Under the pieces are notes generated by a model. It ran no database searches and had not been told where the DNA came from. It saw only the letters and a list, made by a program, of their open reading frames with translations. A stretch of 64,000 nt of DNA, taken from positions 530 through 64,529 of the forward strand of contig VHCZ01000005.1 of assembly GCA_016871535.1 (NCBI GenBank). Direction: 5' to 3'. Numbering within the stretch: position 1 is the stretch's first letter; each line of letters starts with the position of its first letter. Shown here piece after piece: positions 11,954 through 46,291 of the stretch. Source of the stretch: Verrucomicrobiota bacterium. GTDB taxonomy: Bacteria > Verrucomicrobiota > Verrucomicrobiia > Limisphaerales > SIBE01. The position numbers and the translations under genes were made by a program.

Positions 11954-12077
11954 GGGTCCATTCGAGGACGGCCGATCCAGCAGAATCCCCAAAGCTTAAA
12001 GCGCCAGGAAACCGTCGCTAGAGGCCAGGATCGGGCGCCGCAATCCAGTGGCATGCCGTCTGCTCGGATGGCCCCGA

Positions 12078-12836: not shown

Positions 12837-12851
12837 TTCAAGCGCTGCCTT

Positions 12852-15103: not shown

Positions 15104-15108
15104 CCTTT

Positions 15109-16218: not shown

Positions 16219-16221
16219 TTC

Positions 16222-17072: not shown

Positions 17073-17091
17073 AACCGAAACCCGTCGCTCT

Positions 17092-18537: not shown

Positions 18538-18560
18538 AACAATCCACCTCCCAGACCGAT

Positions 18561-22500: not shown

Positions 22501-23024
22501 GAAGGGATGCCGCTTTGAATGTAGCAATCTCGGACGAACGCACTTGGCACCCAGATTTCATCGACGCGATCTCGCAACACCGCGACCCAATCCTTCGGAA
22601 TGCAGCCAAATTCCCAGGGTTGAATGATCACCCAGTGACCGTCCTGGGGCGGCGTTGGGTTGAACGGCCATTGATGGCGCAAGTGAACGTGCGCCGGCCG
22701 GGCGAGAGGCGCGCGAACGCGACCGGCGATCTGGCCGAAGCGGGGATCAGCCTCCGGGCCGAATTGGTCGGGCTCGAACGGAAGAATGGAGAGGTCGTGG
22801 CCCCCCTCGATCAACTGGAGGCACAACTCGCGATTGATCAACGCCAGCGAATGGTGAACGAACTGCGACCCCTCCCAGATGATCGACAGCTTGCGTTCGG
22901 GGTGGCGCAGAGTTGCACTCTGCTGTATCGCCGATTTGGAATCGGAGGCGCGTGGACTGTTCGGAACGGATTCGAGTTTGCCGGCGCTTTGCAGGCTGCA
23001 ATCCTGCGATACGGCAGATTGCAA
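19533..23024 (-). CDS. multidomain glycosyltransferase: GT4-like, short TPR, GT2, C-terminal TPR array (1163 aa)
   Basis: GT4-type C-terminal half (LVHPYRGEGFGLPILEAMACGLPVIVT). GT2 (LSVCLIAKDEEDNIGRCLASVEPIASQIVVVDTGSKDRTVEIARQHGA...LILDADEEL). Multiple TPR-like helices at the C-terminus. No ATG start: the track uses TTG 23024. Contains in-frame repeat elements at 22348-22421 and 21527-21615. Confidence 0.85.
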   Translation of the reverse strand: MQSAVSQDCSLQSAGKLESVPNSPRASDSKSAIQQSATLRHPERKLSIIWEGSQFVHHSLALINRELCLQLIEGGHDLSILPFEPDQFGPEADPRFGQIAGRVRAPLARPAHVHLRHQWPFNPTPPQDGHWVIIQPWEFGCIPKDWVAVLRDRVDEIWVPSAFVRDCYIQSGIPSEKVYVVPNGTNPDRFHPNAPPLLLPKAGQASSLPGSISRDGMKGRQDACSTARKFRFLFVGGTIRRKGPDLALNAYLKSFTAADNVCLVVKDFGANTFYQGQTLEAQIRQLQSHPNAPEIVYLNQDLAPEQMPGLYTACDCLVHPYRGEGFGLPILEAMACGLPVIVTAGGAADDFATEEFAYRIPARRQSIGTKVGDLELAGQGWLLEPDLEALSNRMKFVASHPAEARLLGQRASVHVRSKWTWTHAAAAAEKRLQALAARTENPTRLRPITLPDSGRAAVNPNRGEQSVARFPSPCPSPQGEGRLIPAAEKSGRGEGRGEGEGDAGLTQRPKTETATPQPAIEVPAAGLIGSLKKAQDFAAQKKYLKAWKAALEAIKLRPFHPDAYLQMIEIALSADDERQAFLCAERLIRMTPNWEMARRVFASLKTAAEGKRSQINWTPLPKWPDRPRLSVCLIAKDEEDNIGRCLASVEPIASQIVVVDTGSKDRTVEIARQHGAEIYRFDWNDNFADARNAGHEHARGDWVLILDADEELPKESHEKLSRDMAATNVLGYRIPICNIHEAADSVTYVPRLFRNAPALFFVGRVHEQIYASVIARKAEWGMDATMGTATIMHYGYDPGLVKRKQKIQRNLRLMERAVQELPNEAALLMNYGLDLVNDGRLEEGLEKYRHAFRIMAPHPAGSILPEVRERLLTIYGVHALKAELFGEVLDVMTSRLAGDAGPTASMHFLAAVALMRMKRAAEAIPHLEACLAKRDAPTLTPPCHQVFKAGPHHLLAQCCAVIGENERAEAHFKQALVIEPETPGVLHDYAHFLHRTDRSLEALQTLHGIMAKGINDEHLWHLGSFISASKPEFAEFSVDWTEEALKHFPQHAGIRALRGEALLKGGRFSEALPFFQNSAHAQEPSARAAVLICQFAEGQTPSLAPSENEAQLSVEFVNWYRRLLAARSLEGLKKINSQIAALRKVLPRAAAMLDQALQEADPS
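21527..21615. repeat. G/C-rich imperfect palindromic element inside the 1163-aa ORF
   Basis: Arms CCCCTCACCCCGGCCCTCTCCCC (21527-21550) and GGGGAGAGGGGCAGGGTGAGGGG (21593-21615) are reverse complements with 2 mismatches. Translated in frame as ...PSPCPSPQGEGRLIPAAEKSGRGEGRGEGEG... Confidence 0.7.
22348..22421. repeat. 74-bp double-hairpin element (copy D), in frame inside the GT4 domain of the 1163-aa ORF
   Basis: gtagagcaggcatcctgcctgcc...caggcaagctggaagcctgccctgc is homologous to the 77-bp copies at 25017, 25734 and 26481. It encodes AGQASSLPGSISRDGMKGRQDACST. Confidence 0.75.
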
Positions 23025-23062: not shown

Positions 23063-26000
23063 CTACCGTTTTTTTTTTCGCCGGGCAGGCTTGCTGGAGG
23101 AAGGCGGAGGAGAAGACGGCGGTTTAGTGAGCAAATCAAGATTCTCGCGGGCGACCGCATTCTGCGGATCGATCTGGAGAACTCGCTCGAAAACCATTTT
23201 CGCCGATTCCGCGTCGCCGGTTTTGTAGAAGCAAACCGCCAGCGGCAGCATCACTTCGGTGTCGTCCGGAGCCTGGAGAAGGATCTTGTGGTAGGTCTGG
23301 GCGGCGTCCTTGAAACGGTTCTCTCGAAAATTCAGGTCGGCCAACAACCGCAGCGCCGGGCGGTAGGTCGGATCATTTTCGAGCACGCGCCCAAGCACGG
23401 CTTCAAATTCGGGAATCCGTTCCAAACCCAGCAACGCCAGGGCCAGGCGAGTCTGGTAGTCCGAGGAATTGGGGAGCATCTGGGTTGCCCGCTGCAGTTC
23501 CTGGCAACTCGCGCTCAAGTCGCCCTTCTGGTAAAGGACACTGCCGAGGGCCGCGCAAATCTCGTGACTGTCGGGGCTCGCCTTCAGCGCTTCTTGGAGC
23601 GCCGCCGCAACCCCGGCCAGGTCTCCCGCAGACCACAATGCATTTGCCCGGGAAAGTTGCTCATCCAAAGCGCGCGTGCCGGCCTTCTCGATCGCGGAAT
23701 GCGGAGCGCGGAGTGCGGAATGGTCAGACTGCCCACTGACCTCTGACAACTGATCACTGGCCACTGATAACTGTCCACTCCCCTTCGCCACGCGAAGGTT
23801 GTCCAGGAGCACCTTCAGATTCTCCCTGGCCAATGTGTGTTCGGGTTCCAATTCCAGAATCCGCTCAAAAATCATTTTGGCGGTCTCGTAATCGCCTGTC
23901 TTGTAGAAGCAAACTGCCAGGGGCATCAGAACCTCCAGATCGTTCGGAGTCTGCTTGAGCATCTTCCCGAAAGCCTGGGCGGCGCTCTGGATCTTGCCTT
24001 GGTTGAAATCGACCTGCGCGCGGAGTCGAAGGGCGTCGAGGCAGTTCGAGTCCAATTCCATCGCCTTGGCCAACGCGGATTCAAATTCAGCCAATTCGCC
24101 CAACTGATAGTGGCACAACGCGAGTTGCACCCATTTGCCGGGATCGGACGGAGCAATCTGCACCAACCGTTCCAAATGAATGCGCGCCTGCCGCAAGTCG
24201 CCCAGTTGGAAACAAACTGTGCCGATCGCGGATAGAATCTCCGGAGAATCTGGCGCGAACGCCAGCGCCGCCTTGAGCGCGTCGCGCGCTTCGGCGAGGT
24301 TTTGCGACCCCACCGCCGCATCGGCCTTGGTCAACCACTGGTTCAACTGGGCAATTTCAGATTTCTCGGACTGCTGAGCCTCGGCAACCGACAACTGACC
24401 ACTGGCAACTGACAACTGGCCACTGTTCTCGCTCTTCTGGTCGAGCTGATAAAGATTCTCCCGCGCCGTGACATTGTTGGGGTCCATTTCGAGAACCCGG
24501 TTATAGACCATGCGAGCGGACTCGAAATCCGCGCCGCGATAAAAGCAAAGCCCCAGGCTCAGCAAGGTCTCCAGGTCATCCGGCTGGCGTTCCAGCAACT
24601 TGGCGTAGGCGCGGCCCGCGTCGCGCACCCGGTTGTTCTCCAGGTTGGTTTTGGCGAGAAACTTGAGCGCTTCGCGATGGTGCGGATCGATCTCCAGCGC
24701 GAGTCCGAGCGCGGCCTCCATTTCCTCGATGCGATTCACCTTCAGACAGGCCATGGCCAGCCGCGTATAGGCATCGACGTCGCGAGGCTTGATTTCGATC
24801 AATCGGCGGAATTGCTCCCGGGCCGCTTCGTAGTTTCCCTGGGTGAAGTGCAGGCTGCCCAGCGCCGAGCGAATCTGCGGGTCGCGCGGCGCCAATTCGA
24901 CCGCCTGTTCGAGAGTCTCCAGCGCGGCCTGCCGATTGCTGACCTCGCAGAAGAAATTCGCCTGGTCCATCAGTTTCGCCAAAGCCGACTGGTCGGTTGC
25001 CACTTGCGGTGGAGGAGTAGGGCAGGCATCCTGCCTGCCTTTCTTTCCGTCATCAGAGACCGTTGATTGAGGCAGGCTGGAAGCCTGCCCTACGTTCTCG
25101 ATTGCGGATTGAGACGACTGATCACTGACAACTGACAACTGATTACTCTCCCTGCCTTCCGACAGCTTCTGACGAATGGCCACCAGGTTCTCCTTCGCGA
25201 CCGGATCGTCCGGGTGCCGTTCCAAAGCGCGCTCAAAGACCAGTCTGGCCGTCTCCAGGTCGCCATCCTTGAAAAAGCAGACGCCGAGCGGCAACAGCGC
25301 GTCCAGGTCGTCCGGGTGCCGGCTCAAGATTTTCGTGTAGGCCTGAGCAGCATCCTTGAGGCGACCGTTCTGAACATTCAAATCGCCCAAAAGCTTCAGC
25401 GCATCGCGATGGTGGGGATCAATCTCCAGCGCCCGGCCCAGCGCGACTTCAAACTCCTCGATCTGATCGAGCTTCAAGTTAGCCAGCGCAAGCTGCACGA
25501 AGACCGCCGGATCGCGCCGGTTCACTTCGGTGGCCCGCTGTAGATACTGATAGGCCTGCTCGAATTCATTCAAAGCGAAACAAATCGCCCCGGCCGCGGC
25601 GAGCGCCCTCGGCTCATCACGCTCCAACCGCAACGCCTCGACCAACAGTTCTTTCGCTCTGGCGAGGTTCCCCCGCTGGTGTTCGGTCTGCGCCTTTTCC
25701 AGGAGACCATCGATTGCGGAGTGCGGTTGAAGAGCAGGGCAGGCATCCTGCCTGCCTGTCTTGCCCTCTTCCAAGACCGTTGATTCGGGCAGGCTGGAAG
25801 CCTGCCCTACGTTCTCCATCGCGGATTGTGGATTGCGGATTGCGGATTCGGGCGACTGATCACCGCTCACTGACAACGGATCACTGACCACTGATAACTG
25901 CCCCACGGCCATCCTCTGCCGGATCACATCGAGATTCTCCTTCGCCACGGGATTTCCGGGATGCTTCTCCAGCACGCGCTCGAACACCAGCTTCGCCGTC

Positions 26001-29000
26001 TCAAAATCGTTCACCTTGAAGAAGCAGACTCCCAGGGGCAACAACGCATCCAGATCGTCCGGATGGCGGCTGAGGATTTTTGTGTAAGCCTGGGCGGCGT
26101 CCTTGAACTGGTCGTTTCGAAGATTCAAATCGGCCAGCAACTTCAGCGCGTCGCGGTGGTACGGATCGAGGTCCAGGGCGCGTCCCAACGCCTGCTCGAA
26201 TTGATCGATGCGCTCCAGCCGGAGATGAGTCAAGGCGAGTTGAACGAACGCGGAGGGATCCGAAGGCATGATTTCCGTCAGCCGGCCGAAGTGACGCTGC
26301 GCCGTGATGAAATCGTTCAGAGCGAACGCAGCCATTCCGAGTTGTTCGATGACTCGAATGTTGTTCGGCGCTTGCTGCAGCGCTTGCTCCAGGATTTGTC
26401 GCGCGGACGAGTGATTCCCATTCTGGCTCTCCCGTTCTGCGCTCGCCAACAAGCGTTCGATTTCAGAGTTCGGCTGAAGAGTAGGGCAGGCCTCCTGCCT
26501 GCCTTTCTTACTGTCTTCAGAGATCGTTGATTCAGGCAGGCTGGAAGCCTGCCCTACGTTGGCCTGATTCAGTGCGGAGTGCGGAGTGCGGAGTGCGGAT
26601 CCAGGCGACTGATTACTGATTACTGATAACTGATCACTGACCACCCCCGAAGCCCTTTCCTCTATCTTCTTCTTGATCGCCGCCAAATTGTTGGCTGCGA
26701 GCGAATGATTCGGGGAGATTTGCAGAATGCGCTGATAGACTTCCCGGGCCGTTTCCCATTCATTCGCCTTAAAGAAGCAGGCGCCCAATCCGAGCAATGA
26801 GTCCAGGTCCTCCGGATTGCGCGAGATGATCTTCACGTAGGTCTGGCCGGCGTCCTTGTAACTTCCCTGCTTCAAGTTCAAATCCGCCAGGAGTTTGAGT
26901 GCGTCGCGGTAGTTCGGGTCGAGTTCCAGGGCGCGGCCCAGTGCCGCTTCGAAATCCTCGATCTGGTCGAGTTCAAGGTTCGCCAGGGCCAACTGGACGC
27001 GAACGCCAGGATCGTTTGGAGCCAACTCTGCGGCCTTTGCAAAATGCTCTCTGGCTGTGGCGAACTCATTCAAGCTGAACAAAATCGCCCCCAGCGTGGC
27101 GTGGATTCGCGGAGAGTTGGGCAGGTGTTGCAGCGCCTCCAGCAAGACGGAGCGGGCATTGGCGAGGTTGCCTTTGCGGTATTCGGCATCGGCTCGTTCC
27201 AGTAGCCGATTGGCCTCGGGCGATACAGGACCTATCTCTAAGTCCGGTTTCGGGTTGGAGTCGTGCGCGTCGTTCATCGAATGCACCGATTCTCGTTTAT
27301 AGCTGGGAATGCGGCCCTGTCGAGCCAGTTCTTGGCCAATTGCGGAGCCTTCGGGTGCGGAGTGCGGAGTGCGGAGTGCGGATTCTGACAACTGATTACT
27401 CCCCCCTGGCAACTGGCAACTGGCAACTGACAACGGATCACTGACCACTGATTCAGGCGAGAGGCGAGGGGCGTCAGGCGTCTGAGGGCGAACGGATTCT
27501 GACAACTGATCACTGACTACTGATAACTGATTACTGGTTTTGCCTCGCAACTCCTCCGCGATCTCCGCCAAGCGCCCGGCCGCAAGCTCCGCCACGCGAT
27601 CCCATTGCCATTTCTCGACCATGTCCTGCCGTGCGCGCGAGCCAATCCGGGCCATTTCCTCCGGCTGTTCAACCACGCGGGGCAACAGTTGAGCCAGATG
27701 GTCTCTCGAAGGTTCAGCCCAGCGATGCCCTCGGAAATACTCGATTTCGGATTCCGGGCCCACGTCGGCCATCTTGTAATCCAGCAAGATGCTGTTCCGC
27801 TCGGTCATGAACTCGCGCGTGCCACTCCATCCGGTCGCAATCACGGGCAATCCGCATGCCATGGCGTCCATCTGCGGCCTGCCCCAGCCTTCGCCCCGCG
27901 ACGGCGCGACGTAAGCGGTGGCGGCGGCGTAGAGATGCGGCAAGTCTGCTTCGGAGATGGGACAACCCAAAACAATAATCGGAGCCACCTGAGAGCGATT
28001 CAACTTCAAGATGCGGCTCAGAAAGGCATCAATGAACAAATTGATCTCGCGCGAAACATCCGGCGCCTCGGAGGCATTCAATGGATAAGCGCGCAGCACC
28101 AGGCAAACGTCGTCCTGAGGTTTGAAAGCGCGGGCCCACGAATGAAGGAGCACGTCCCAACCTTTGCGATAGCTCCATTCGAAGATCGATAGAAAGACGG
28201 TCTTTCGTCTTCCAGGAATTGGCAGAGGATTCAAACCGGGTCGAAAGCGGTCGGTATCGACTCCCCCCGGAATCTTGACCAATCGTGCCGTCACGCCGGA
28301 GTTCCTGAAGGACTCCAGCGAGTGCTCCGTCGGCACCCAGATTTCATCCATCCGATTGCACTTTTCGACCCACTCCTGCGGCAGCCGATCGGTCTCGAAC
28401 ATGGTTCTGCCAATGCAATAGGCAGCGCCCGGCAGCCGATCCAGGCAACGGCCTGAAACGTGAACCACCGCGGCAAACGGAGAAGGGATGTTCTTCTGCA
28501 GCAGGGCATCGAGTTTGTCGCGATCCGCCGAATCGATCTTGGCACGGCAACCTTCGGAAGCCGGGGCGAAGGAACGAATCGCCAGATTGATATTGTTGCT
28601 CTCCAGATTCAGGACAAAGTGCCGGGCTTCCTCAGCATAGCCACTGAAGCTGTAAAACAGGCCGTGCCACAGAACAGGCATCGCCGAAGCGGCGGACGAA
28701 GTCAGGTTTTCTCCTGCGCCACTTCCGCGCGCCGGCGAATCGACGGGCCGCACGAGGGGCTCGAAGGGAGGCGAGGCGTAAAGTGAACTCTGCTTCGTGT
28801 CCCCGCCAAACGCCAGCAGCATCTTGCTCCACAACTCCCTCGCGGCTGGATGCATGGGATCGAGCCTCAGGCACATCCGGACGTAATCCGCGCATTCCGC
28901 GTAGCGCTGAACTCGCGCGGTCTCGACCGCTTTCGCGAGCAACGCGTTCGGAGGCGCATTCTGCAATTCCGGGTCTTCCCAGGGGAACTTGAATTCGGCC

Positions 29001-32000
29001 TTGCGAGCCAAGATCACCCTTCCCACCTGGGTGTAACGCCGGTCATTATGGGTCACGGTACTGAATGGGCAGCACCGAATGGAAAAGCCTGCCGTCTTCA
29101 GGCGCTCGGAAAAATCGACATCCTCCAGTTGGTAGAATCCGCGTTGACCATCCCACTGCACGAGATCGGAAACGGCAGCCTTCATAATACAGAGGCCGCC
29201 GGTGACGTAAACGCGTGAATCGTATTCCGTGTATTCCAACAAGCGTTGCTCCGCTGCCGAGCCCGCCTTGGCCCAGTCCCAGAACCGCGTGCCGTCCGTA
29301 TTCAGAAGTCGAACACAGAGCACGTCGTAATTCTCCCCAAAATTGAGCAGCCCTTCGTAGAAATCCGCATGGAAAATCATGTCGTCGTCCGCGACGACGA
29401 GGCGGTCGTACTGGGCTCGCCGGCAAAGTTGATTCCGCATTTCCCCAAGCCGTCCGGCATGAGCCACCTCGGCCATCGGCACCGCGATGACATCGTCGAA
29501 ACCGGCTGGCACATCGCCGCCCACGAGGATTTCGCATTGAGGAATCTTGAGCGCCCGTATGCTTTGAATTTCCTCGCGCAGCTTGGCGGGGCGCTTGCCG
29601 TTCGTGATGATGCAGAAACTAAAACCCGGCGCGCGTTGTTTGGCGCACTGAGGCGCTGACGAATCGACTCGTTGGACGTTCACGGACGAAGCGTCGGCCA
29701 GCTTTTGCGCCGCGTCCGGTTCGTCCAAGAGGCTCTTCTCTGCCTTCTGCGTGCGCGGCGGCGTGGGCGGATGGAAGCGAGCCTTGGCATCGAACTGCAT
29801 GCTCCAGCGCTGGCCGAACAACTGCACGTTTTCAGGCACATGCTGCAAGCGCCCGGCGCTTTTGGCCTCGTGGTGGTACACGACCGTGCGCGGCTCATAA
29901 ACGACCTTCCAGCCCGCCGCGCGAACCCGCAGGCACAAATCGACATCCTCGCCGCCATTCTTGAAGCTTTCGTCAAACCCGTTCAACTCGAAGAACAGCG
30001 TTCGCGGAATCATCAGGCAAGCGCCGGTGACGATGTCCAGCTCGCGAAACACGTTGACTTCGGGCGCGGAAGCCGGGGCGAAACGATGCACGTGATCCAG
30101 CATCTGCCCGACCAACCCAAACCCCGCGTGCTGCACCCGTCCATCCGGATACAGCAGTTTCACGCCGACCACTCCGACTCGCGGCAAGCGCGCCGCCCAG
30201 ATCATCGAGTCGCACCAACCGGGCGTGACCCGCGTGTCGTTGTTCAGGAACAGCAACAAATGTCCGCGAGCCTCCAGCGCGCCTTGATTGCAGCCGCGGG
30301 CGAAGCCCACGTTTTGTGAATTCAGGAACGCGCGCAGCCGTCCGGCCTGTTGCTCGCGGCGCAAATAATCAGCCGTTCCGTCCGTTGACGCGTTGTCCAC
30401 CACGATAATCTCGCCCTTGGCGGGATCGATCGTTTCGTAAAGGGAAGCGAGGCACTCGCGGTTCAATTCGAGATTGTCGAAAGTCAGGACGATGATGGAG
30501 ACGAGCGGCAAGGATTGGATGGCTCCCTCTCTTCCACTCGAAGAGAGGAGCGGGCTGAGGAGAGGAGGACTATCGTGCTGACTTTTCCACTCTCCTCGAT
30601 CCTCTCCCCACTCATGCTTCGCGGGGAGAGGAGGAAGACCTACGGTCTCCGCACTCCGCACTCCGCATTCCGCAATGGTTGCCGGTTCCCCTCCGGGGAG
30701 GGGTGAAGCCGTGGGTTCACTGTTCGGCAACGAAGCAGATTCTTGTGAAGCAGCTTGAGCCTCGGCGGCCTGACGGCTTGCCAGCACTTCTCGTTTCATT
30801 CCTTCCAGGTACGCTTTTCGAGCCGCTTGCAGTTCCGGCCGCCCCGACACCAGATGTTCCGACTTCTCATAGACGCGCGTGGCGGTTCGCAGCATATCCG
30901 CCCGTTTGCCGCTGTTCATGCTCGTGCCGTCGAATCGCCAGCGAAACTCGCACGTGACTTTGGGAATATGGAAGAACTGGAAATGGCGCGACATGCGGAT
31001 CCACAAATCCCAATCCTCATGGCTGGTCAGCGATTCGTCGAATCCCCCGGCGGTTTCCCAGCACGCCTTTTCGTGCATGAAGCACAGCACGGGCACGAAA
31101 TTGCCCACCAGGATTTCATCCCGATCAAAGTCGCGTGAATACGGAACATCCCGGCGAACGATTTCATAACTGCCGCCCTTCTTCATTTGGTGGGCGCGCC
31201 AGGCATCTGTGTAGGCGACTTTCGCTCCGCTTTTTTGCAGAAACTCGTGCAGCGTTTGGAGATGGTCGGGAAGAAAAAGGTCGTCGTCGTCCAGATACGT
31301 GATGTATTTGCCGCGCGCCTGGTTGACGCCCGTATTTCTGGCCGCGGCCAGGCCGCGGTTCTGGAAGTGTTGGAAGTAACGGATCTTTCGCGAAGCGTTA
31401 AGGCCTTCGATCTGCTTGGAGACATCCTGCCCGGCGTCGTTGACGACCAGGATTTCAAAATCCTGGAACGTCTGGCTCAAGATGCTCTGGAGCGTTTCCG
31501 CGAGCATCTCTGGCCGGTTATAGGTCGGCACGATGACGGAAATGGCCGGCCCCTGGCTCTGGGCCTTCGGGTTCCCTTCTCCGCGCAAGAACCTCCGGGC
31601 AATCTCCACAATGTCCTTCGGATAGAGGTCAGGATGATTGGCGATAATGTTGATGCGGAGGATCGTGTCGCGTTTCAGCGCATCCTGAAAAAGCCCATCC
31701 GCTTTCTCGCGGTAGTGGAATAAGGGTTTGGCAATTCGCTTGCCCACGAATCCTTTTTCTCCGCAGCCAATCCAGAAATCCCAATCTTCGTATCCTTTGA
31801 CATTGGTCTTGTATCCGCCCACCGTTTCCCACGCCTGGCGGCGAAAGAGGGAACAATAACAAAGATGGTTCGCGTGGATCAGAACTTTGAAGTCGTACTC
31901 GGCGGTCGGTTGAATCCACGAACGCTCCCGGTTGAAAAAGATGGCATCCGTGTAAGCAATCGCTACGTCCGGGTTGGACTCTAGAATTTGCACGCACTCC

Positions 32001-35000
32001 GCCAGGAGGGTCGGCGCGATGCGGTCGTCAGCGTCCAATGGCAGGATGAATTCGCCTTGTGCTTCGGCAATTCCTCGGTTGCGGGAGATCGCCGGCTGGC
32101 CGGAGTTCGGCTGGTTGATGAGCTTGATTCGGTGCGTGGAATACCGGGCGCGAAGGCTTTCCGCGACCTGCGCGCTGTCATCAGTGCTCCCGTCGTTAAC
32201 GATGATAATCTCAAAATCCTGATAGGTCTGCTTGATGACGCTATCGACCGCCTCCGGCAGGTAGCGCTCGTAATTGTAGCAAGGGATGACCACGGACACT
32301 CGGGGCGGCGATTTCATGGGTTGCACCGCCGCTTCGCCCGATACGGCGCTCGGCAAAGCAATGGACCTTGTCGCTCGCGCCTGGTTCGCTTGGCGTTGAA
32401 ATTCACCGCGAAGCTCCGCCATTCGCGCGGACACACCGGCAGGCATCTCGAAATTCGCCTTGATGGGTTCGCCTTGGATCACTGACGTCCACGCTCGAAT
32501 AACGACGTTCCAACTGAAGCACGCCCCCCAGTGATCGTAGCCGCACTGGCCCAGCGCCTTTCTCAACTCCGTCTCTCGCAGCAACGTCGCAATAGCATTT
32601 GGAAACTCCGCCAGCGGCACGATGACGCCGCCGGCATTGTCGTGGACCGCGCCGCAGTTCGGTGTCGCCACCCATGCCTTCGCGTGGCTCATCGCTTCCA
32701 GAATGACGACGGGCGACGCTTCGGCGCGCGAGGGGAGCAGGATCAAATCCGCCGCTTCCATCGCTGCCGAAACCTTCTCCGGCGGCAAACCCGGAATCCA
32801 GATGACTTTGGGATCGCGTTCGACTGCCTCGCGAACAGCCTTGCCGTAATTCTGTTCCATCGTTGTGCCGCCGATGATGGCCAGGCGCCATTCTCCCGGA
32901 AGATTCTGCAGCGTCTCGAACAACCCCAGGTGATTCTTCACGCGGAACAGGTTCGCCACGTGCAGCAGCAAGGGCATGTCCTTAGGGATGCCGTGTTCGC
33001 GCCGGAAATCTCCCGCTGGCGCAACGACGTCAACCGCATTGGGGATGTAAGCGGGATCGATCTTCTCTTCCTGGAAGTAGCGATCCCCCGCCCCATGCCG
33101 TGTGATGGACACGACCGCGTGCGCTGATTGGAGAACAGAGCGGAGCGATTCACGAAACTCGCGATCGCCTCGCCAGTTGTGGAAGGCCGCATCGTTGATC
33201 ACCGGCTGGAGGATCAGCCGAAAACGGCGCGGAAGAGTCAGCCCATGAAACGCCCAAAACAAAAGGTTGGAAGGATCGGAAATCGCAATGCACGCGTCGT
33301 AGCGCCCGGAACAAACGAGTTCGCCCAATTGCACCGTGGCGCGCGGAAGGGTCGTTCCCGAAATCTTTTCACGATCCAATGAGATCACGCGCATTCCCAG
33401 ATGGTCGTCCGTTTGCCGCGCCTCATTGGAGTAGGCGGCAACTTCCACATCGAAATCCAGGAAGGACAAACGCCGGCCCAGGTTTTCGACGATGCTCTCG
33501 ACTCCGCCGACCGAAGGGTAGAAATGGGGACAAGCCAGGAGAACGCGCGGACGAGAAGTCCGGTTCGCCGTTTTTCGAGCCTCGACAATCCGGCTCGAAG
33601 CGCTTTGCACGCGCGGCCAATCGTAGAGCCTGAAATGGTTGACCGTGATTTGGGCCTTGAGAAGTTCGCGATTGCGATTCGCTCGATCGAGCAAGCCCGA
33701 GCCGTGTTTCCGATAGAAAAAGAGCGGCTCAGGGATGAGCCGCCCCTCCCAGCCTTTCTCCGCGAGGCTGATCCAAAAGTCCCAGTCTTCGTAGCCTTTG
33801 ACATTGAGTTTATATCCGCCAACCTCGGCCCAGAGCCGCTTTCGATAGAGCGCGCAATAAGGGACGCAATTGTCCTGGAGCAGATTTTGGAGCGTGAACT
33901 CGCCGCACCGCCAAATGTCCTGGCGATCGCCGAAATGCTGCAATTGAGAATAGACCACGCCGACCTTGCCGTCGGATTCGATGAGGTTTACGGCCTTTTC
34001 CAGGAAGGTGGGCGCAATTTTGTCGTCGGGATCCAGGGGAAGGACATATTCGCCTCGGGCCGCGTCGATGCCGGAGTTCCGCGCGCTCGCGGGCTGGCCG
34101 GAGTTGCTTTGCCGGATCAACGTGATGGGAAGGTCCTGATAGGTGTCGATAAGCTGCCGGGCTACGCTGGCCGTATTGTCCGTGCTGCCGTCATCGACAA
34201 TGATGATCTCGAAATCGCGGCATGTTTGCCGAGCAACGCTTTCGACTGCCTCCGGCAGAAAGTGCGCGTAGTTGTAGCAGGGGATGACGACGCTGACCTT
34301 CGGGGGCGGGATACTTTCCGCGTCAGCTTCAGGCCGGCGGGGCATTCGAGACTCTTGCGTCTGGAACAGATCGGAGCGGGCTTCATCCATCGAAGGCGCA
34401 TCGGCTTTGTGCAGGCTTTGCGGATCGCTACCCCCGCCGGTCAACCACGTCACTACAGCGTGTTTCGTTGCGCCGCAGACCGGCTCAAAAAACTCGCGCG
34501 ACTTCTGCTCTGACCAAGGCCTCGGTTGGATGGATTGACGGTTCGCCGCGAGCTTCTGAACGACGGCTCTCAACTCCGAAGCGGTTCGACATGTGAAGTC
34601 ATACTCTGCAAAGGGCATGACATTTTGATCGACAAAAAATTCTGAGAGCAACCCAATCGTGGTCCGGCCCGCATGAGCCGCCTCAAACTCGACCGAGGAT
34701 CCGTTGCAGATGACAACTTCGCTATCGACGAGCGCTTCGCTCGCGGACCGTTGCCCCACGATCATCTCCTCCGGCAGAGACGAAAGCTGCGCAATCCGGA
34801 GCGCCGTCTGGAGAAGTTCCGATTCGCGCCCCATCCGGGGATGAAACCGAATTTCCAGGCGGACATTGCGGATGGCATGGAGCGCTTCGATCGTCCGCGT
34901 GAGCATTTCCAGAGACGGCCCCGCTTCAATCACGAGGCACAACAAGACGCGCAAATGCGGGCCGGAAGATTGAGGAAGCGCGGCCGCCTTCGCGCCCGCC

Positions 35001-36355
35001 GGTTGGGTTAAGGCTTCAAAACGAAAAGCTGGCCAGACCGACGTTCTGCTTTCAGAGAAACCGTATTCGCGGAACATCCGCTGCCAATACTCTCCGTGAG
35101 TGGCCAGGCAGTCCGGAATCTGATTGGCCGTGAAGTCGCTTCGGGAAGGGAAATAGCTGAACCAAAACGGCGGCACCGGGCAATGTTGATAAGCGGTCAG
35201 TTTCGTTGCCGGCAGGAATTCGCGAACTCCTAACCTCAGTCCTTTCTCCCAGGGCTGGTTTTCATACGGATAAATCAAGTTCCCGACGGTGCTGCCCTGG
35301 CCGGCCAGGAATCTGCCGACGTGATAGAACTGCTGGGCAAAAAGCGGGCGCGCGATGCTCTGGTCGTGATGAAACGCCTCGAAGAGAAGCGGAGTCACAT
35401 CGACTCCCTCCAGAATCCACCGGCCTCTGAGTTTGAGCGTGAACTCGAGAAGACGTTGAGCCGTGCTTTCAAAAGCATCCAGATCAACACAATCTTCAAT
35501 AAAGAGACAGGGACCCGTGCCGCGAAAGACACCTTCGTAAATCTTTTCGATCGGATAAACCCAATCGAGTGGATTGACCAGGAAGACGACGCTCCCGCCG
35601 GCCTCCTCCAGCCAAAAAGGCAGAGGCCCGAAAAAGTCGTCTCGGCCAGCGCGGGCGTGCCTGGCGAAACTCTCAGGTTGAATCCAGGACACGAGGAGGT
35701 GATCAATCTGTTTCGGCAGCGCGCCTAAGGGGCGTCCAGCTTTTTGGCGAAGGTTCGCGACCAGTTCCTTCCGAGATCGGAGTCGGCCAATGAAATGCGA
35801 TGCGTGGGCCGCAAATTTGGATTTTTGATTCCTGCGATGCTGTCTGAGGGTTTTGAACAGAGCGCCTGCCTCTTCCTGATTGAAGGAACCCCAAAGCTGG
35901 ACCTCGCACTTTCCAGTCCTGGACGCGACTCTAGACAAGAAAGCTGCCAGGTATGCGTCGTCCACCACGATCAACAACTCACCGTCGATGTCTTCGAGGA
36001 TGCGCGGCAGAGAAAGAGCGGCGCAGAGATGGTAAAAGAGCATGGAAGAGAGCGGGCTTCGTTCGGCCACCGAGGTTGTCGCCCAGCGCAGGTCTGCGAC
36101 ATCCACTTCCACCACTTGATCTAAATTCAGGAACTCGCGCCAGATTCTGGAAGCCGTGGCATTGATATACTGGCCGCTGCAGACGTAAGTCGCGAATCGA
36201 TTTAGCCCCTCCTGTATGGAATAAAAAAAAGCCGCCTGATTCCCCAAATAGGTCCAACTGAATTGTCCGGAGGAGCGGAACCGCTCCAATGCCCGCGCCA
36301 ATTCGCTGGCTTGACTGAACACCACGGTCTTCTTTTTCATCGGATTTATGCCCAT
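23063..36355 (-). CDS. giant multidomain glycosyltransferase (4430 aa): unknown N-terminal domain, 4 GT2, 1 GT-A-like, 2 GT4 domains, six tandem TPR modules
   Basis: Uninterrupted 13,293-nt ORF. GT2 signatures: VSVVIPCYNYAHFLPEAVESV..DPDD (~34300), VSVVIPCYNYERYLPEAVDSV..DADD (~32310), ISVIVPTYNRPEMLAETLQS..DDDD (~31555), VSIIVLTFDNLELNRECL..NNDT (~30510). GT-A-like FSFCIITNGKR..ADDDM (~29625). GT4 signatures near 33550-32480 and 28680-27560 (SRGEGWGRPQMDAMACGLPVIAT). Six paralogous ~190-aa TPR modules span 27240-23110. Confidence 0.8.
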   Translation of the reverse strand: MGINPMKKKTVVFSQASELARALERFRSSGQFSWTYLGNQAAFFYSIQEGLNRFATYVCSGQYINATASRIWREFLNLDQVVEVDVADLRWATTSVAERSPLSSMLFYHLCAALSLPRILEDIDGELLIVVDDAYLAAFLSRVASRTGKCEVQLWGSFNQEEAGALFKTLRQHRRNQKSKFAAHASHFIGRLRSRKELVANLRQKAGRPLGALPKQIDHLLVSWIQPESFARHARAGRDDFFGPLPFWLEEAGGSVVFLVNPLDWVYPIEKIYEGVFRGTGPCLFIEDCVDLDAFESTAQRLLEFTLKLRGRWILEGVDVTPLLFEAFHHDQSIARPLFAQQFYHVGRFLAGQGSTVGNLIYPYENQPWEKGLRLGVREFLPATKLTAYQHCPVPPFWFSYFPSRSDFTANQIPDCLATHGEYWQRMFREYGFSESRTSVWPAFRFEALTQPAGAKAAALPQSSGPHLRVLLCLVIEAGPSLEMLTRTIEALHAIRNVRLEIRFHPRMGRESELLQTALRIAQLSSLPEEMIVGQRSASEALVDSEVVICNGSSVEFEAAHAGRTTIGLLSEFFVDQNVMPFAEYDFTCRTASELRAVVQKLAANRQSIQPRPWSEQKSREFFEPVCGATKHAVVTWLTGGGSDPQSLHKADAPSMDEARSDLFQTQESRMPRRPEADAESIPPPKVSVVIPCYNYAHFLPEAVESVARQTCRDFEIIIVDDGSTDNTASVARQLIDTYQDLPITLIRQSNSGQPASARNSGIDAARGEYVLPLDPDDKIAPTFLEKAVNLIESDGKVGVVYSQLQHFGDRQDIWRCGEFTLQNLLQDNCVPYCALYRKRLWAEVGGYKLNVKGYEDWDFWISLAEKGWEGRLIPEPLFFYRKHGSGLLDRANRNRELLKAQITVNHFRLYDWPRVQSASSRIVEARKTANRTSRPRVLLACPHFYPSVGGVESIVENLGRRLSFLDFDVEVAAYSNEARQTDDHLGMRVISLDREKISGTTLPRATVQLGELVCSGRYDACIAISDPSNLLFWAFHGLTLPRRFRLILQPVINDAAFHNWRGDREFRESLRSVLQSAHAVVSITRHGAGDRYFQEEKIDPAYIPNAVDVVAPAGDFRREHGIPKDMPLLLHVANLFRVKNHLGLFETLQNLPGEWRLAIIGGTTMEQNYGKAVREAVERDPKVIWIPGLPPEKVSAAMEAADLILLPSRAEASPVVILEAMSHAKAWVATPNCGAVHDNAGGVIVPLAEFPNAIATLLRETELRKALGQCGYDHWGACFSWNVVIRAWTSVIQGEPIKANFEMPAGVSARMAELRGEFQRQANQARATRSIALPSAVSGEAAVQPMKSPPRVSVVIPCYNYERYLPEAVDSVIKQTYQDFEIIIVNDGSTDDSAQVAESLRARYSTHRIKLINQPNSGQPAISRNRGIAEAQGEFILPLDADDRIAPTLLAECVQILESNPDVAIAYTDAIFFNRERSWIQPTAEYDFKVLIHANHLCYCSLFRRQAWETVGGYKTNVKGYEDWDFWIGCGEKGFVGKRIAKPLFHYREKADGLFQDALKRDTILRINIIANHPDLYPKDIVEIARRFLRGEGNPKAQSQGPAISVIVPTYNRPEMLAETLQSILSQTFQDFEILVVNDAGQDVSKQIEGLNASRKIRYFQHFQNRGLAAARNTGVNQARGKYITYLDDDDLFLPDHLQTLHEFLQKSGAKVAYTDAWRAHQMKKGGSYEIVRRDVPYSRDFDRDEILVGNFVPVLCFMHEKACWETAGGFDESLTSHEDWDLWIRMSRHFQFFHIPKVTCEFRWRFDGTSMNSGKRADMLRTATRVYEKSEHLVSGRPELQAARKAYLEGMKREVLASRQAAEAQAASQESASLPNSEPTASPLPGGEPATIAECGVRSAETVGLPPLPAKHEWGEDRGEWKSQHDSPPLLSPLLSSSGREGAIQSLPLVSIIVLTFDNLELNRECLASLYETIDPAKGEIIVVDNASTDGTADYLRREQQAGRLRAFLNSQNVGFARGCNQGALEARGHLLLFLNNDTRVTPGWCDSMIWAARLPRVGVVGVKLLYPDGRVQHAGFGLVGQMLDHVHRFAPASAPEVNVFRELDIVTGACLMIPRTLFFELNGFDESFKNGGEDVDLCLRVRAAGWKVVYEPRTVVYHHEAKSAGRLQHVPENVQLFGQRWSMQFDAKARFHPPTPPRTQKAEKSLLDEPDAAQKLADASSVNVQRVDSSAPQCAKQRAPGFSFCIITNGKRPAKLREEIQSIRALKIPQCEILVGGDVPAGFDDVIAVPMAEVAHAGRLGEMRNQLCRRAQYDRLVVADDDMIFHADFYEGLLNFGENYDVLCVRLLNTDGTRFWDWAKAGSAAEQRLLEYTEYDSRVYVTGGLCIMKAAVSDLVQWDGQRGFYQLEDVDFSERLKTAGFSIRCCPFSTVTHNDRRYTQVGRVILARKAEFKFPWEDPELQNAPPNALLAKAVETARVQRYAECADYVRMCLRLDPMHPAARELWSKMLLAFGGDTKQSSLYASPPFEPLVRPVDSPARGSGAGENLTSSAASAMPVLWHGLFYSFSGYAEEARHFVLNLESNNINLAIRSFAPASEGCRAKIDSADRDKLDALLQKNIPSPFAAVVHVSGRCLDRLPGAAYCIGRTMFETDRLPQEWVEKCNRMDEIWVPTEHSLESFRNSGVTARLVKIPGGVDTDRFRPGLNPLPIPGRRKTVFLSIFEWSYRKGWDVLLHSWARAFKPQDDVCLVLRAYPLNASEAPDVSREINLFIDAFLSRILKLNRSQVAPIIVLGCPISEADLPHLYAAATAYVAPSRGEGWGRPQMDAMACGLPVIATGWSGTREFMTERNSILLDYKMADVGPESEIEYFRGHRWAEPSRDHLAQLLPRVVEQPEEMARIGSRARQDMVEKWQWDRVAELAAGRLAEIAEELRGKTSNQLSVVSDQLSESVRPQTPDAPRLSPESVVSDPLSVASCQLPGGSNQLSESALRTPHSAPEGSAIGQELARQGRIPSYKRESVHSMNDAHDSNPKPDLEIGPVSPEANRLLERADAEYRKGNLANARSVLLEALQHLPNSPRIHATLGAILFSLNEFATAREHFAKAAELAPNDPGVRVQLALANLELDQIEDFEAALGRALELDPNYRDALKLLADLNLKQGSYKDAGQTYVKIISRNPEDLDSLLGLGACFFKANEWETAREVYQRILQISPNHSLAANNLAAIKKKIEERASGVVSDQLSVISNQSPGSALRTPHSALNQANVGQASSLPESTISEDSKKGRQEACPTLQPNSEIERLLASAERESQNGNHSSARQILEQALQQAPNNIRVIEQLGMAAFALNDFITAQRHFGRLTEIMPSDPSAFVQLALTHLRLERIDQFEQALGRALDLDPYHRDALKLLADLNLRNDQFKDAAQAYTKILSRHPDDLDALLPLGVCFFKVNDFETAKLVFERVLEKHPGNPVAKENLDVIRQRMAVGQLSVVSDPLSVSGDQSPESAIRNPQSAMENVGQASSLPESTVLEEGKTGRQDACPALQPHSAIDGLLEKAQTEHQRGNLARAKELLVEALRLERDEPRALAAAGAICFALNEFEQAYQYLQRATEVNRRDPAVFVQLALANLKLDQIEEFEVALGRALEIDPHHRDALKLLGDLNVQNGRLKDAAQAYTKILSRHPDDLDALLPLGVCFFKDGDLETARLVFERALERHPDDPVAKENLVAIRQKLSEGRESNQLSVVSDQSSQSAIENVGQASSLPQSTVSDDGKKGRQDACPTPPPQVATDQSALAKLMDQANFFCEVSNRQAALETLEQAVELAPRDPQIRSALGSLHFTQGNYEAAREQFRRLIEIKPRDVDAYTRLAMACLKVNRIEEMEAALGLALEIDPHHREALKFLAKTNLENNRVRDAGRAYAKLLERQPDDLETLLSLGLCFYRGADFESARMVYNRVLEMDPNNVTARENLYQLDQKSENSGQLSVASGQLSVAEAQQSEKSEIAQLNQWLTKADAAVGSQNLAEARDALKAALAFAPDSPEILSAIGTVCFQLGDLRQARIHLERLVQIAPSDPGKWVQLALCHYQLGELAEFESALAKAMELDSNCLDALRLRAQVDFNQGKIQSAAQAFGKMLKQTPNDLEVLMPLAVCFYKTGDYETAKMIFERILELEPEHTLARENLKVLLDNLRVAKGSGQLSVASDQLSEVSGQSDHSALRAPHSAIEKAGTRALDEQLSRANALWSAGDLAGVAAALQEALKASPDSHEICAALGSVLYQKGDLSASCQELQRATQMLPNSSDYQTRLALALLGLERIPEFEAVLGRVLENDPTYRPALRLLADLNFRENRFKDAAQTYHKILLQAPDDTEVMLPLAVCFYKTGDAESAKMVFERVLQIDPQNAVARENLDLLTKPPSSPPPSSSKPARRKKKR
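23069..23078. repeat. homopolymer T10 (A10 on the coding strand) in the last codons of the giant ORF
   Basis: Coding strand reads CGA AAA AAA AAA CGG TAG (R K K K R stop). This is the longest homopolymer I found in the window. Confidence 0.95.
25017..25093. repeat. 77-bp double-hairpin element (copy A) with terminal inverted repeats GTAGGGCAGGC / GCCTGCCCTAC
   Basis: gtagggcaggcatcctgcctgcctttctttccgtcatcagagaccgttgattgaggcaggctggaagcctgccctac. Hairpins GGCAGG-cat-CCTGCC and GGCAGGC-tggaa-GCCTGCC. In frame: VGQASSLPQSTVSDDGKKGRQDACPT. Confidence 0.8.
25734..25810. repeat. 77-bp double-hairpin element (copy B)
   Basis: gcagggcaggcatcctgcctgcctgtcttgccctcttccaagaccgttgattcgggcaggctggaagcctgccctac. 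In frame: VGQASSLPESTVLEEGKTGRQDACPA. Confidence 0.8.
26481..26557. repeat. 77-bp double-hairpin element (copy C)
   Basis: gtagggcaggcctcctgcctgcctttcttactgtcttcagagatcgttgattcaggcaggctggaagcctgccctac. In frame: VGQASSLPESTISEDSKKGRQEACPT. Confidence 0.8.
26572..26599. repeat. perfect tandem heptanucleotide array (GTGCGGA)x4
   Basis: Counted directly. In frame it reads SALRTPHSAL. Degenerate versions occur at ~23693-23722, 25100-25113 and 25818-25850, and in inverse orientation at ~30647-30685. Confidence 0.9.
27355..27382. repeat. perfect tandem heptanucleotide array (GTGCGGA)x4
   Basis: Counted directly. In frame it reads SALRTPHSA. Confidence 0.9.
27406..27454. repeat. heptanucleotide-periodic array (CTGGCAA)x3 then CTGACAA CGGATCA CTGACCA CTGATTC
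   Basis: Counted directly. The same ACTGAYN-type 7-nt periodicity occurs at ~23735-23779, 24384-24427, 25115-25152, 25855-25900, 26606-26645 and 27495-27540. It translates as QLSVVSDQLSV-type linkers. Confidence 0.85.
30601..30631. repeat. G/C-rich hairpin CCTCTCCCC-N13-GGGGAGAGG within an in-frame palindromic linker (about 30520-30690)
   Basis: Perfect 9-bp stem. The neighbouring hairpin CTCTCTT-N7-AAGAGAG lies at ~30526-30548, and an inverted (ACTCCGC)n tract at ~30647-30685. Translated as ...AIAECGVRSAETVGLPPLPAKHEWGEDRGEWKSQHDSPPLLSPLLSSSGREGAIQS... Confidence 0.7.
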
Positions 36356-36474: not shown

Positions 36475-37242
36475 CTACAAGGGTGGCGTCGATTCAACGT
36501 CGTCGGTATAGCCGTGCCGTTTGAGCCAGAATTCTGCCTGGGGAATTTGCCATTCGTAGTCCACGTCCAGCCCGCCCCAATTGTGAACCGGAAAGATCTT
36601 CTTTCCCATCCAGCGCTGAGGCAGGAGCCCCTCATGCAGGTTCTCTAAACAGCGAGGCCGGACCACCGACACCCCCATGTCCGCGTAATAAACATTGCCT
36701 TGGGAGTCGCGGTCGCAGGACAATTTCGATGGGTCGCCAAAAGCGTCGAAAGGCACGAACGGCTGCAAGCACCCGTCTTCATCCGCACGCCGGGCGCGCA
36801 ACGGACTCCACATGTTGTAACAGGAGACCGTGACGGCGCTGTCCAGCGCTCCGTTTCTCCGCAAGGTCTTGACCCCCTCTTCAATCAAGCGACTGGTCAC
36901 GGTTGGGGAATTCGCGAACAGCAGCACCATCAACTCGATTTCTTTACCCTCCTGCCGCCAGAGCTCGCGGATGTGCCGATACCCATGCGCAAAAGCATCC
37001 TCGCCCAGGGCCGTGGCCGTGCAAAGCTCCGGGGGGCGGACGATGATTCTCGCGCCGTGTTGCCGTCCGACCGCCATGATTTCTGGAGAATCGGTGGAAA
37101 CAAAAACTTCGTTGACAAATTTGCAGCCCCGCGCCGCCAGAATGGGGTAAGCCATCATGGGCCGGCCCAACAGAGGATACAGATTCTTGTTCGGCATGGT
37201 CACGCTGCCGCCGCGACCCAGTAAAAGCGCAGGAATAGCCAT
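36475..37242 (-). CDS. acylneuraminate (nonulosonate) cytidylyltransferase family protein (NeuA/PseF/LegF-like)
   Basis: MAIPALLLGRGGSVTMPNKNLYPLLGRPMMAYPILAARGCKFVNEVFVSTDSPEI matches the CMP-NulO synthetase N-terminal signature (IPAR.GS...KN...L.G.P). Confidence 0.85.
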   Translation of the reverse strand: MAIPALLLGRGGSVTMPNKNLYPLLGRPMMAYPILAARGCKFVNEVFVSTDSPEIMAVGRQHGARIIVRPPELCTATALGEDAFAHGYRHIRELWRQEGKEIELMVLLFANSPTVTSRLIEEGVKTLRRNGALDSAVTVSCYNMWSPLRARRADEDGCLQPFVPFDAFGDPSKLSCDRDSQGNVYYADMGVSVVRPRCLENLHEGLLPQRWMGKKIFPVHNWGGLDVDYEWQIPQAEFWLKRHGYTDDVESTPPL

Positions 37243-39134: not shown

Positions 39135-39145
39135 GTGAGCGCTCT

Positions 39146-40819: not shown

Positions 40820-40856
40820 CGCGCTGATGGCTTTCGCATCAAATCCTCTTCAGCCG

Positions 40857-40872
40857 AGCAAGTTGCGCGCCA
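40857..40872 (-). promoter_or_regulatory. sigma54 promoter TGGCGCGCAACTTGCT (read on the - strand)
   Basis: One mismatch to TGGCACG-N4-TTGCW with exact GG-N10-GC spacing. It lies in the 198-nt gap upstream of the first B12-rSAM gene (ATG at 40819), ~38 nt upstream of the ATG. Confidence 0.6.
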
Positions 40873-41017
40873 CGGAATTGAAGCCCCATTTCTACTTCCG
40901 AAACCCAAGAATGCACCATGTTGGGCGTCTTGGGTCGCCCGCCCTGGGAATAATATTCCGCCCTGCGGACGAAATTGTCCCGGGGCCAGTCGGATGGGAA
41001 GCCGGCCTGCTGAAAAG

Positions 41018-41800: not shown

Positions 41801-41806
41801 AGCAAT

Positions 41807-42907: not shown

Positions 42908-42910
42908 GGG

Positions 42911-44044: not shown

Positions 44045-44129
44045 GATGACTCTTGTTTGCCTGGAAACACAGTCGCGTACTCCGCTCCAACGCCGACGTG
44101 CATGCGTGATTTGTCGGATGCTTGATTTC

Positions 44130-46112: not shown

Positions 46113-46291
46113 CGTATGGGTGTGTAACTGTCTTGCGCATGCACAGGCGTCCGCTTAACGCTGCGTCTGTTCGCGAAGAATTTAGCAACCCCAGGTTGAA
46201 AGAACAAGTCCGGTTCAACAAGGTTGTTTCTAGTGGCGCATTTCCTTAATGCAACAAGAAGCATACGCCGACTTGGGAAGCACTCGGTGGC

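Follow-up and report, generated by a model that had tools for sequence, protein, structure and literature searches.

A 4430-residue chain of eight transferase-like and six TPR modules beside flagellar genes of a Verrucomicrobiota bacterium: a candidate machine for flagellin glycosylation

The stretch of DNA analysed here, called the window below, is 64,000 nucleotides (64 kb) long and comes from a Verrucomicrobiota metagenome-assembled genome (MAG). On its minus strand, at 23063..36355, lies a single open reading frame (ORF) for a protein of 4430 amino acids (aa), which we term the giant and in which eight transferase-like modules are followed by an array of six tetratricopeptide-repeat (TPR) modules. 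In our judgement the giant is probably a soluble, cytoplasmic single-chain O-glycosylation machine that would act independently of a lipid carrier on flagellin or on another exported flagellar axial protein. A previous sequence-only reading of this DNA had compared the protein with flagellin glycosyltransferases that bear TPRs, and this analogy is sound, as the TPR domains of both FlmG and Maf-1 bind flagellin. In FlmG this domain is N-terminal and binds all six Caulobacter flagellins (PMC7591256, bioRxiv 10.1101/2022.03.25.485807), while in Maf-1 it is C-terminal (bioRxiv 10.1101/2023.12.03.569772).

The ORF starts with an ATG and runs to a single terminal stop; its description as uninterrupted over 4430 codons is thereby confirmed. 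The product has a mass of 493.6 kDa, a pI of 5.9 and no predicted transmembrane segment. No hydrophobic segment was detected along the protein, the maximum 19-residue Kyte–Doolittle mean being 1.47. It is identical to NCBI entry MBM3836640.1 ('MAG: glycosyltransferase [Verrucomicrobia bacterium]'), which is encoded on a 65.9-kb contig. The source is a short-read metagenome assembly, and the gene contains six paralogous modules as well as error-prone low-complexity linkers built of 7-nucleotide (7-nt) tandem tracts. These features speak for an artefact, either a chimeric or collapsed repeat assembly or a set of genes joined by sequencing errors, in which case no 494-kDa protein would exist. We regard this as extremely improbable. 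An independent contig (L082, from JGI sample 3300020197) carries an ORF of equal length (13,293 nt) with the same neighbours, and the two ORFs differ by 2 nucleotide substitutions and 1 amino-acid change, without indels. The longest DNA repeat within the gene measures 119 nt, and its copies are at most 85% identical. In view of these two observations collapse or expansion of repeats is unlikely, and assembly collapse was rejected. Furthermore, the six modules stand in identical order within one ORF of the closest ortholog, paralogous stretches differ by synonymous changes only, and ORFs of a similar kind of 3,000 to at least 4,312 aa are present in unrelated assemblies.

The whole protein was scanned with Pfam, as were eight segments spanning aa 1–3030 (aa 1–680, 681–960, 961–1340, 1341–1600, 1601–1880, 1881–2290, 2291–2580 and 2581–3030). 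All glycosyltransferase (GT) and TPR assignments that had been made from the sequence are supported in this way, and Pfam together with the alignment of motifs recovers the four GT2 domains, the single GT-A-like domain and the two GT4 domains. Where 'seven or more' GT domains had been proposed, seven stand, and the N-terminal ∼645 aa that had been left unplaced constitute an eighth, transferase-like module with a GT-B fold. The GT2 domains each score 68–133 bits against PF00535, for which the cut-off is 23.3. All lie on the minus strand: GT2 domain 1 (aa 685–935, 33551..34303; PF00535 1e-38) with DPDD and YEDWD motifs, domain 2 (aa 1351–1590, 31586..32305; 4e-36) with DADD and YEDWD, domain 3 (aa 1604–1830, 30866..31546; 4e-33) with DDDD and HEDWD and domain 4 (aa 1950–2215, 29711..30508; 1e-18) with NNDT and GEDVD. 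Domains 1 and 2 share 50% identity. In sequence the GT2 modules are similar to chondroitin synthase K4CP, PglI, GalT1 and SpsA, all of them ordinary nucleotide-sugar-dependent GT2 enzymes. GT-A-like domain 5 (aa 2244–2470, 28946..29626 on the minus strand; DDDM and LEDVD motifs) passes PF13641 only (1e-7, 32.6 bits versus a cut-off of 27). When the five GT-A domains are aligned, the last Asp of DPDD/DADD/DDDD/NNDT/DDDM is invariant, as is the E-D-x-D motif.

The two GT4/GT-B domains are likewise on the minus strand. Domain 1 (aa 941–1300, 32456..33535; PF00534 4e-19, PF13692 7e-16; 69 bits) contains an EX7E motif that reads EASPVVILE (E1212–E1220), and domain 2 (aa 2560–2940, 27536..28678; PF13692 7e-14 with 52.6 bits, PF00534 5e-12) an EX7D motif that reads EGWGRPQMD (E2822–D2830), the second acid being Asp. 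On the strength of these motifs all seven GT2, GT-A and GT4 modules look catalytically competent, and by their Pfam scores the GT2 and GT4 modules are bona fide members of their families. The pair formed by GT-A domain 5 and GT4 domain 2 is also present in the relatives L030, L039 and L063.

The remaining catalytic candidate is the N module (aa 1–645, 34421..36355, minus strand). No Pfam family matches aa 1–680 of the giant; what resolved the module was a combination of NCBIfam with a relaxed threshold, a full search with HMMER, a predicted structure and a comparison of the family profile with the PDB. With NCBIfam entry TIGR04326 (O_ant_LIC13510, 'surface carbohydrate biosynthesis protein') it gives 63 bits (E 1.7e-17, aa 358–607) versus a curated cut-off of 250, making it a distant relative rather than a member of that family. 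The HMMER search returned 1469 relatives, nearly all of them standalone proteins of 600–650 aa that are annotated as hypothetical. In an alignment of 76 sequences only three columns are invariant, namely Glu365, His505 and Pro506. The AlphaFold2 model (pLDDT 90.8, pTM 0.91) adopts a GT-B fold, and its top 50 Foldseek matches are GT-B enzymes and two-Rossmann proteins of the UDP-GlcNAc 2-epimerase type; LmbT, NeuC, UDP-GlcNAc 2-epimerases, Cps3D, CalG and OGT are among them. Assignment of a donor from the fold alone was rejected, as Foldseek gave generic GT-B proteins and did not single out sialyltransferases.

The best PDB sequence match of the N-module family profile is the CMP-Kdo-dependent transferase KpsC (E 2.3e-4), in a local alignment of ∼85 residues. 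The profile segment 'vvvkfHPkm' is aligned with 'IWVKVHPDV' of KpsC such that the HP motifs coincide, and 'SgvafEAlaaGvPv' is aligned with 'SQYGFEALLAGKPV'. An HP motif is the signature common to CMP-sialic-acid and CMP-Kdo transferases (PMC2169525, PMC5420450, PMC10148158). The genomic neighbours of the family agree with this match. Standalone homologs adjoin close homologs of the cytidylyltransferase that is encoded upstream of the giant in loci L053, L086, L089, L094 and L100. In locus L001 (8437–11851) a standalone homolog (P0004, placed by JGI in the TIGR04326 family) comes directly after KdsA-like, KdsC-like and two cytidylyltransferase genes. Its KdsA/KdsB/KdsC-like neighbours support a link between the N-module family and CMP-activated keto-deoxy sugars. 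Given the GT-B fold, the HP motif aligned with that of KpsC and the cytidylyltransferase and Kds-like neighbours, the N domain is probably an eighth transferase module, with a CMP-activated ulosonic acid as its putative donor. Its fusion to a chain of several GT modules is rare; related cases are an N module with one GT2 domain in L086, an N module with a methyltransferase (P0032) and a protein of 1627 aa (P0116). The module would represent a candidate new family of CMP-nonulosonic-acid transferases with ∼1,500 uncharacterised homologs.

A 660-aa protein encoded elsewhere in the window (44130–46112, minus strand) matches no Pfam family and is weakly related to TIGR04331 (LIC12162 family transferase). 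Over ∼110 aa at its C terminus it weakly and locally resembles the N module's nucleotide-binding half (E 0.004), and it is an alternative candidate for the nonulosonic-acid transferase.

Dense Pfam TPR matches occupy aa 3031–4430. Both Pfam and the translation bear out the six paralogous modules of ∼190 aa and the KPARRKKKR tail that had been noticed in the sequence. The modules are ∼180–195 aa each, follow one another at a spacing of ∼215–260 aa and are separated by low-complexity linkers of 25–65 aa. Behind the last of them, a Pro/Ser-rich spacer and a polybasic tail (23066..23125, minus strand) end the chain with ...SSSKPARRKKKR (KPARRKKKR). The closest ortholog, with 59% identity, is encoded in a groundwater Verrucomicrobia MAG (locus L002) on a contig that ends upstream of module 1. 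It has six modules in matching order and a similar tail (...PQAKKKR). Identities to the corresponding ortholog module are 70% for module 1 (aa 3040–3235, 26651..27238), 65% for module 2 (aa 3300–3485, 25901..26458), 62% for module 3 (aa 3550–3740, 25136..25708), 83% for module 4 (aa 3790–3980, 24416..24988), 72% for module 5 (aa 4005–4195, 23771..24343) and 70% for module 6 (aa 4235–4410, 23126..23653), all on the minus strand.

The matrix of identities between the modules of the giant and those of the ortholog is strictly diagonal, with 62–83% on and 31–57% off the diagonal. The array is therefore older than the split of the two lineages. Within the giant the six modules are 34–59% identical to each other. 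Modules 2 and 3 had been described as nearly identical over long stretches; they share 59% identity overall and one identical stretch of 30 aa (KDAAQAYTKILSRHPDDLDALLPLGVCFFK). The corresponding DNA (25268–25357 and 26015–26104) differs at 16 of 90 nucleotides, all 16 differences being synonymous and none non-synonymous, which reflects purifying selection on the TPR modules. The proposal of a recent tandem duplication is refuted by these synonymous differences and by the one-to-one pairing of modules with the ortholog; a recent duplication or gene conversion between modules 2 and 3 was rejected on the same evidence and on the identity values. The shared stretch is a strongly constrained surface of the TPR modules and possibly serves as a binding site.

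Tandem tracts with a 7-nt period build every linker in the TPR half as well as one linker between GT2 domains 3 and 4. Four perfect copies of AGTGCGG are present at 26571–26599 and again at 27355–27382, four copies of CTCCGCA lie at 30647–30674 in the GT2 linker and imperfect ACTGAYM runs make up the other linkers within 23693–27536. Nine such tracts are located in the 13.3-kb gene of the giant and none in the remaining 50.7 kb of the window. A search of the gene of the giant for periods of 6, 8 or 9 found no tracts. In the ortholog the equivalent linkers contain eleven heptamer tracts, and their repeat units are different. A gain or loss of three units would preserve the reading frame, while a change of one unit would truncate the array. 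The tracts may thus be sites of slippage or recombination. They occur mainly in the giant, its ortholog and a few other loci; the idea that they are a trait of the whole class was rejected, as none are present in the loci of Nitrospirales, Geomonas and Brocadia or in most others.

The surroundings of the gene fit the proposed function. Every gene from 63824 down to 19533 is on the minus strand. The order starts with a cytidylyltransferase, a GFO/IDH-type enzyme, DegT, an epimerase, NeuB and three AsnB-like amidotransferases, continues with a fatty-acyl-AMP-ligase fusion, an acetyltransferase, two radical-SAM/SPASM enzymes, the LIC12162-like protein and an aminotransferase, and ends with an FkbM methyltransferase, two B12-radical-SAM enzymes, a second cytidylyltransferase, the giant and a gene with GT4, GT2 and TPR domains. 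The part at 37563..63824, co-directional with the giant and upstream of it, is a nonulosonic-acid synthesis and modification island, as had been recognised from the sequence: NeuB, a DegT-type aminotransferase, an epimerase and two cytidylyltransferases are all accounted for. One of the latter (CTP_transf_3, PseF-like; 36475..37242, minus strand) is separated from the giant by 119 nt. The GT4–GT2–TPR gene (19533..23024, minus strand; 1163 aa), considered here as a partner, follows 38 nt downstream of the giant.

On the plus strand, fliD, flgF, flgG, flgA, flgH, flgI, a flgJ-like gene, flgN, flgK and flgL (7949..19496) converge on the glycosyltransferase genes. The convergent arrangement with fliD, flgK and flgL noted earlier therefore holds for the array of genes, the one that directly faces flgL being the 1163-aa partner and not the giant. 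The same is seen on contig L082. The ortholog locus retains the flagellar neighbours and the second GT gene, of which the equivalent there encodes 1649 aa with two GT4-like domains and a GT2 domain.

Scans of Genome Taxonomy Database (GTDB) genomes and JGI metagenomes yielded 160 loci with relatives, the sizes of which are those of stop-to-stop ORFs with several of the same GT modules, often together with a TPR module. Five or more phyla contain multi-GT/TPR proteins, with lengths from 2,400 to at least 4,312 aa. Examples are Verrucomicrobiota proteins of 3949, 3755, 3707 and 3182 aa, a Nitrospirales protein of 3500 aa, one of 3248 aa from Sulfotelmatobacter and one of 3053 aa from Geomonas edaphica. 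In a lake metagenome (L095, 3232–16167) an ORF with TPR, methyltransferase, GT4 and several GT2 domains extends over at least 4312 aa to the contig end, such that 4430 aa is probably not the upper size limit of the class. The sub-blocks GT2–GT2–GT2 (modules 2, 3 and 4), GT2–GT4 (GT2 domain 1 with GT4 domain 1) and GT-A–GT4 (GT-A domain 5 with GT4 domain 2) recur in varied orders. Judged from these sequences, the giant is the largest complete example of a broad, shuffled and uncharacterised class and not a singleton. It had been called extreme and undescribed. As to the latter, a literature search for multi-domain GT giants near flagellar genes found no publication that describes such proteins; its uniqueness does not hold, as the databases contain many giants of 2,400–3,950 aa and one of at least 4,312 aa.

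The association with flagellar genes extends to these relatives. Among loci of at least 15 kb, flgK, flgL, flgI, flgH or fliD is located within 10 kb in 31 of 99 (15 of 59 genome loci and 16 of 40 metagenome loci), and the flagellum-adjacent loci come from Verrucomicrobiota, Brocadia, Acidobacteriota and Nitrospirales. For a random gene we estimate an adjacency of roughly one or two percent, and relative to this estimate of our own the observed frequency is far above random expectation. A 3269-aa relative (P0010; L163 10001–19810 and L164 1962–11771) lies between flgK/flagellin_N and fliD and is composed of a methyltransferase, an FkbM domain, a Maf domain (PF01973), a radical-SAM/SPASM domain, TPR and four GT2 domains. 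As Maf is the classical transferase of nonulosonic acids to flagellin, the presence of this domain within a flagellar locus ties the class to flagellin glycosylation.

Combining these elements, we propose a mechanism in which flagellin, unfolded or chaperoned and not yet exported, would be bound by the TPR array in the manner of the TPR domains of FlmG and Maf-1. The eight transferase modules, together with the 1163-aa partner, would build a hetero-oligosaccharide directly on Ser or Thr residues. For the GT2 and GT4 modules the donors would be nucleotide sugars and the residues added neutral or amino sugars; the N module would contribute a heavily modified, CMP-activated nonulosonic acid supplied by the products of the upstream genes. 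Fusion into a single chain would keep the steps stoichiometric and near one another.

To our knowledge, the known flagellin glycosyltransferases (FlmG, Maf, GmaR and Fgt) have one or two domains and add one sugar or a short chain. FlmG of Caulobacter crescentus and Brevundimonas resembles the giant in that it combines TPR with a GT-B domain and is encoded together with genes for pseudaminic or legionaminic acid. Which of these two CMP-sugars serves as the donor is set by the GT-B domain, and the enzyme works in the cytoplasm without a lipid carrier (PMC7591256; bioRxiv 10.1101/2022.03.25.485807). It differs in architecture, with one N-terminal TPR domain and one C-terminal GT-B domain in 596 aa, whereas in the giant the TPR array is C-terminal, six-fold and ∼1,400 aa long and seven further GT modules are inserted between GT-B and TPR. 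The FlmG-type layout of ∼600 aa is hence not that of the giant, nor was a protein of FlmG-like length and layout found among the top 150 of the 1469 relatives of the N module. Maf-type transferases such as Shewanella Maf-1 are connected to the class through the Maf megaprotein P0010, in which Maf, TPR and GT2 domains are combined. The giant itself lacks PF01973, which was found neither in the eight segments of aa 1–3030 nor among the 25 of 44 whole-protein matches listed; in its place, the GT-B module that bears the HP motif is the candidate for nonulosonic-acid transfer. No PF01973 was found in those other ORFs of the window that were scanned with Pfam; the remaining ORFs were scanned with NCBIfam only and gave no Maf-type family. 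GmaR, the flagellin O-GlcNAc transferase of Listeria monocytogenes, likewise has an N-terminal GT followed by TPR and glycosylates flagellin in the cytoplasm (PMC9638930), but in 637 aa it contains one GT that adds one sugar, along with an anti-repressor domain that is not seen in the giant.

Two groups of polysaccharide enzymes are also similar. KpsC (GT107) and WbbB (GT99 and further GT modules) carry several GT modules per chain (PMC10148158, PMC9587256), including a CMP-ulosonic-acid-dependent GT-B module with an HP motif, and the HP region of the giant's N-module profile aligns with that of KpsC. They differ in having two to three modules, in acting on lipid-linked glycans and in being encoded with ABC-transporter export genes. 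The TagF-like capsule polymerases Cps3D, Cps7D and Bcs3 are multi-enzyme chains in which TPR is fused to GT-B (PMC11666461), and the first of these belongs to the Foldseek matches of the N module. In contrast to the giant, they measure at most ∼1,300 aa, have one TPR domain that serves as a scaffold for dimerisation and stability, and possess a polyol-phosphate transferase domain. No Pfam or NCBIfam match to a CDP-glycerol/polyol-phosphate transferase (TagF-like) domain was obtained in any segment of the giant. From its domain content the giant is thus not of the FlmG family by architecture, not a Maf protein and not a TagF-like polymerase. By analogy, we expect with reasonable confidence that it operates as an enlarged form of a TPR-guided flagellin glycosyltransferase, with eight catalytic and six predicted acceptor-binding modules.

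Several observations weigh against a role in flagellin glycosylation. With FlgL as a probe for a flagellin gene, only FlgL itself was matched in the window. Both the closest named family of the N module (TIGR04326) and its best sequence match in the PDB (KpsC) belong to O-antigen and capsule loci. The wider class is not exclusively flagellar, since roughly two thirds of its loci show no flagellar gene within 10 kb. The TPR domain of capsule polymerases, Cps3D among them, is a dimerisation scaffold and not an acceptor binder (PMC11666461), and a polybasic C terminus would be equally suited to an enzyme that modifies a lipid-linked acceptor at the membrane. Finally, the source of the giant is a MAG. 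Most of these points also speak for a synthase or polymerase of a surface polysaccharide (O-antigen, capsule or another glycan) that would act on a lipid-linked acceptor at the inner membrane face, anchored there by its polybasic tail and with the TPR array as a scaffold for oligomerisation or partners. That the gene lies beside flagellar genes would then be coincidental or due to co-regulation. Multi-module GT2/GT4 proteins such as WbbB and KpsC are indeed typical of ABC-transporter-dependent O-antigen and capsule synthesis (PMC9587256, PMC10148158). The N module has relatives with surface-carbohydrate annotations, and similarity links the GT2 modules to PglI as well as to chondroitin and heparosan synthases. 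We nevertheless consider this alternative possible but unlikely. No ORF in the 64 kb has more than two hydrophobic segments, and the window is consequently without an initiating phosphoglycosyl transferase, a flippase, a polymerase, an ABC permease or transporter or any polytopic membrane protein. The giant also lacks a TagF-like domain (PF04464, Pfam), the flagellar neighbourhood recurs across phyla far above chance and the sister megaprotein P0010 carries its Maf domain inside a flagellar locus.

Alternatively, the giant could be an O-glycosyltransferase complex that acts on a protein other than a flagellar one, be it an S-layer protein, a pilin or an adhesin, or on several substrates, with different TPR modules recognising different clients. 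The six modules are divergent enough that they could mean six specificities. The cyanobacterial Ogt (PMC9306852) is one example of TPR–GT enzymes that have pilins and other proteins as substrates, and O-glycans terminated by nonulosonic acids are known on S-layer proteins (PMC5420450). The loci of the giant and of its ortholog, however, both directly adjoin flgK–flgL, and no S-layer, pilin or adhesin gene was seen in the window, which leaves this explanation very doubtful.

A more far-reaching version of flagellin glycosylation by the giant would be a glycan assembly line comparable to nonribosomal peptide synthetases (NRPS) and polyketide synthases (PKS). Flagellin held by the TPR array would be processed by eight fixed modules without a lipid carrier to give a glycan of ∼8 or more sugars capped with a nonulosonic acid, and the 7-nt tracts would diversify the flagellar glycan. 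As sites of slippage or recombination in the linkers, they would allow modules to be gained, lost or switched off within populations. Taken as a whole, we consider this version quite unlikely. If flagellin glycosylation by such proteins is correct, single megaenzymes with an acceptor-binding array would make the complex glycans on the flagella of Verrucomicrobiota, anammox Planctomycetota, Nitrospirota and Acidobacteriota. They would provide a compact, soluble and lipid-independent system for placing defined oligosaccharides on proteins, which would be useful for glycoengineering, and a natural set of shuffled GT-module orders in which to study how specificity and order are encoded. The analysis also flags a large class of unannotated giant genes in environmental genomes.

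The remainder of the window adds a few features. Within the flagellar region two ORFs (9713–10444 and 10823–11461) match no Pfam family. Upstream of fliD are a sigma-54 activator with a receiver domain (6241–7707), a 449-aa TPR protein (4414–5763) and two ORFs of 466 and 219 aa without a Pfam match (2209–3609 and 3738–4397). The fatty-acyl-AMP-ligase fusion of the island is 954 aa long, and its first ∼400 aa have no assignment. Between 37563 and 58070 on the minus strand the island holds an unusually rich set of sugar-modifying enzymes, comprising two B12-binding radical-SAM enzymes, two radical-SAM/SPASM enzymes, FkbM, three AsnB-like proteins and an acetyltransferase. From its gene content, this set suggests a nonulosonic acid that is heavily C-methylated, amidated or acylated.

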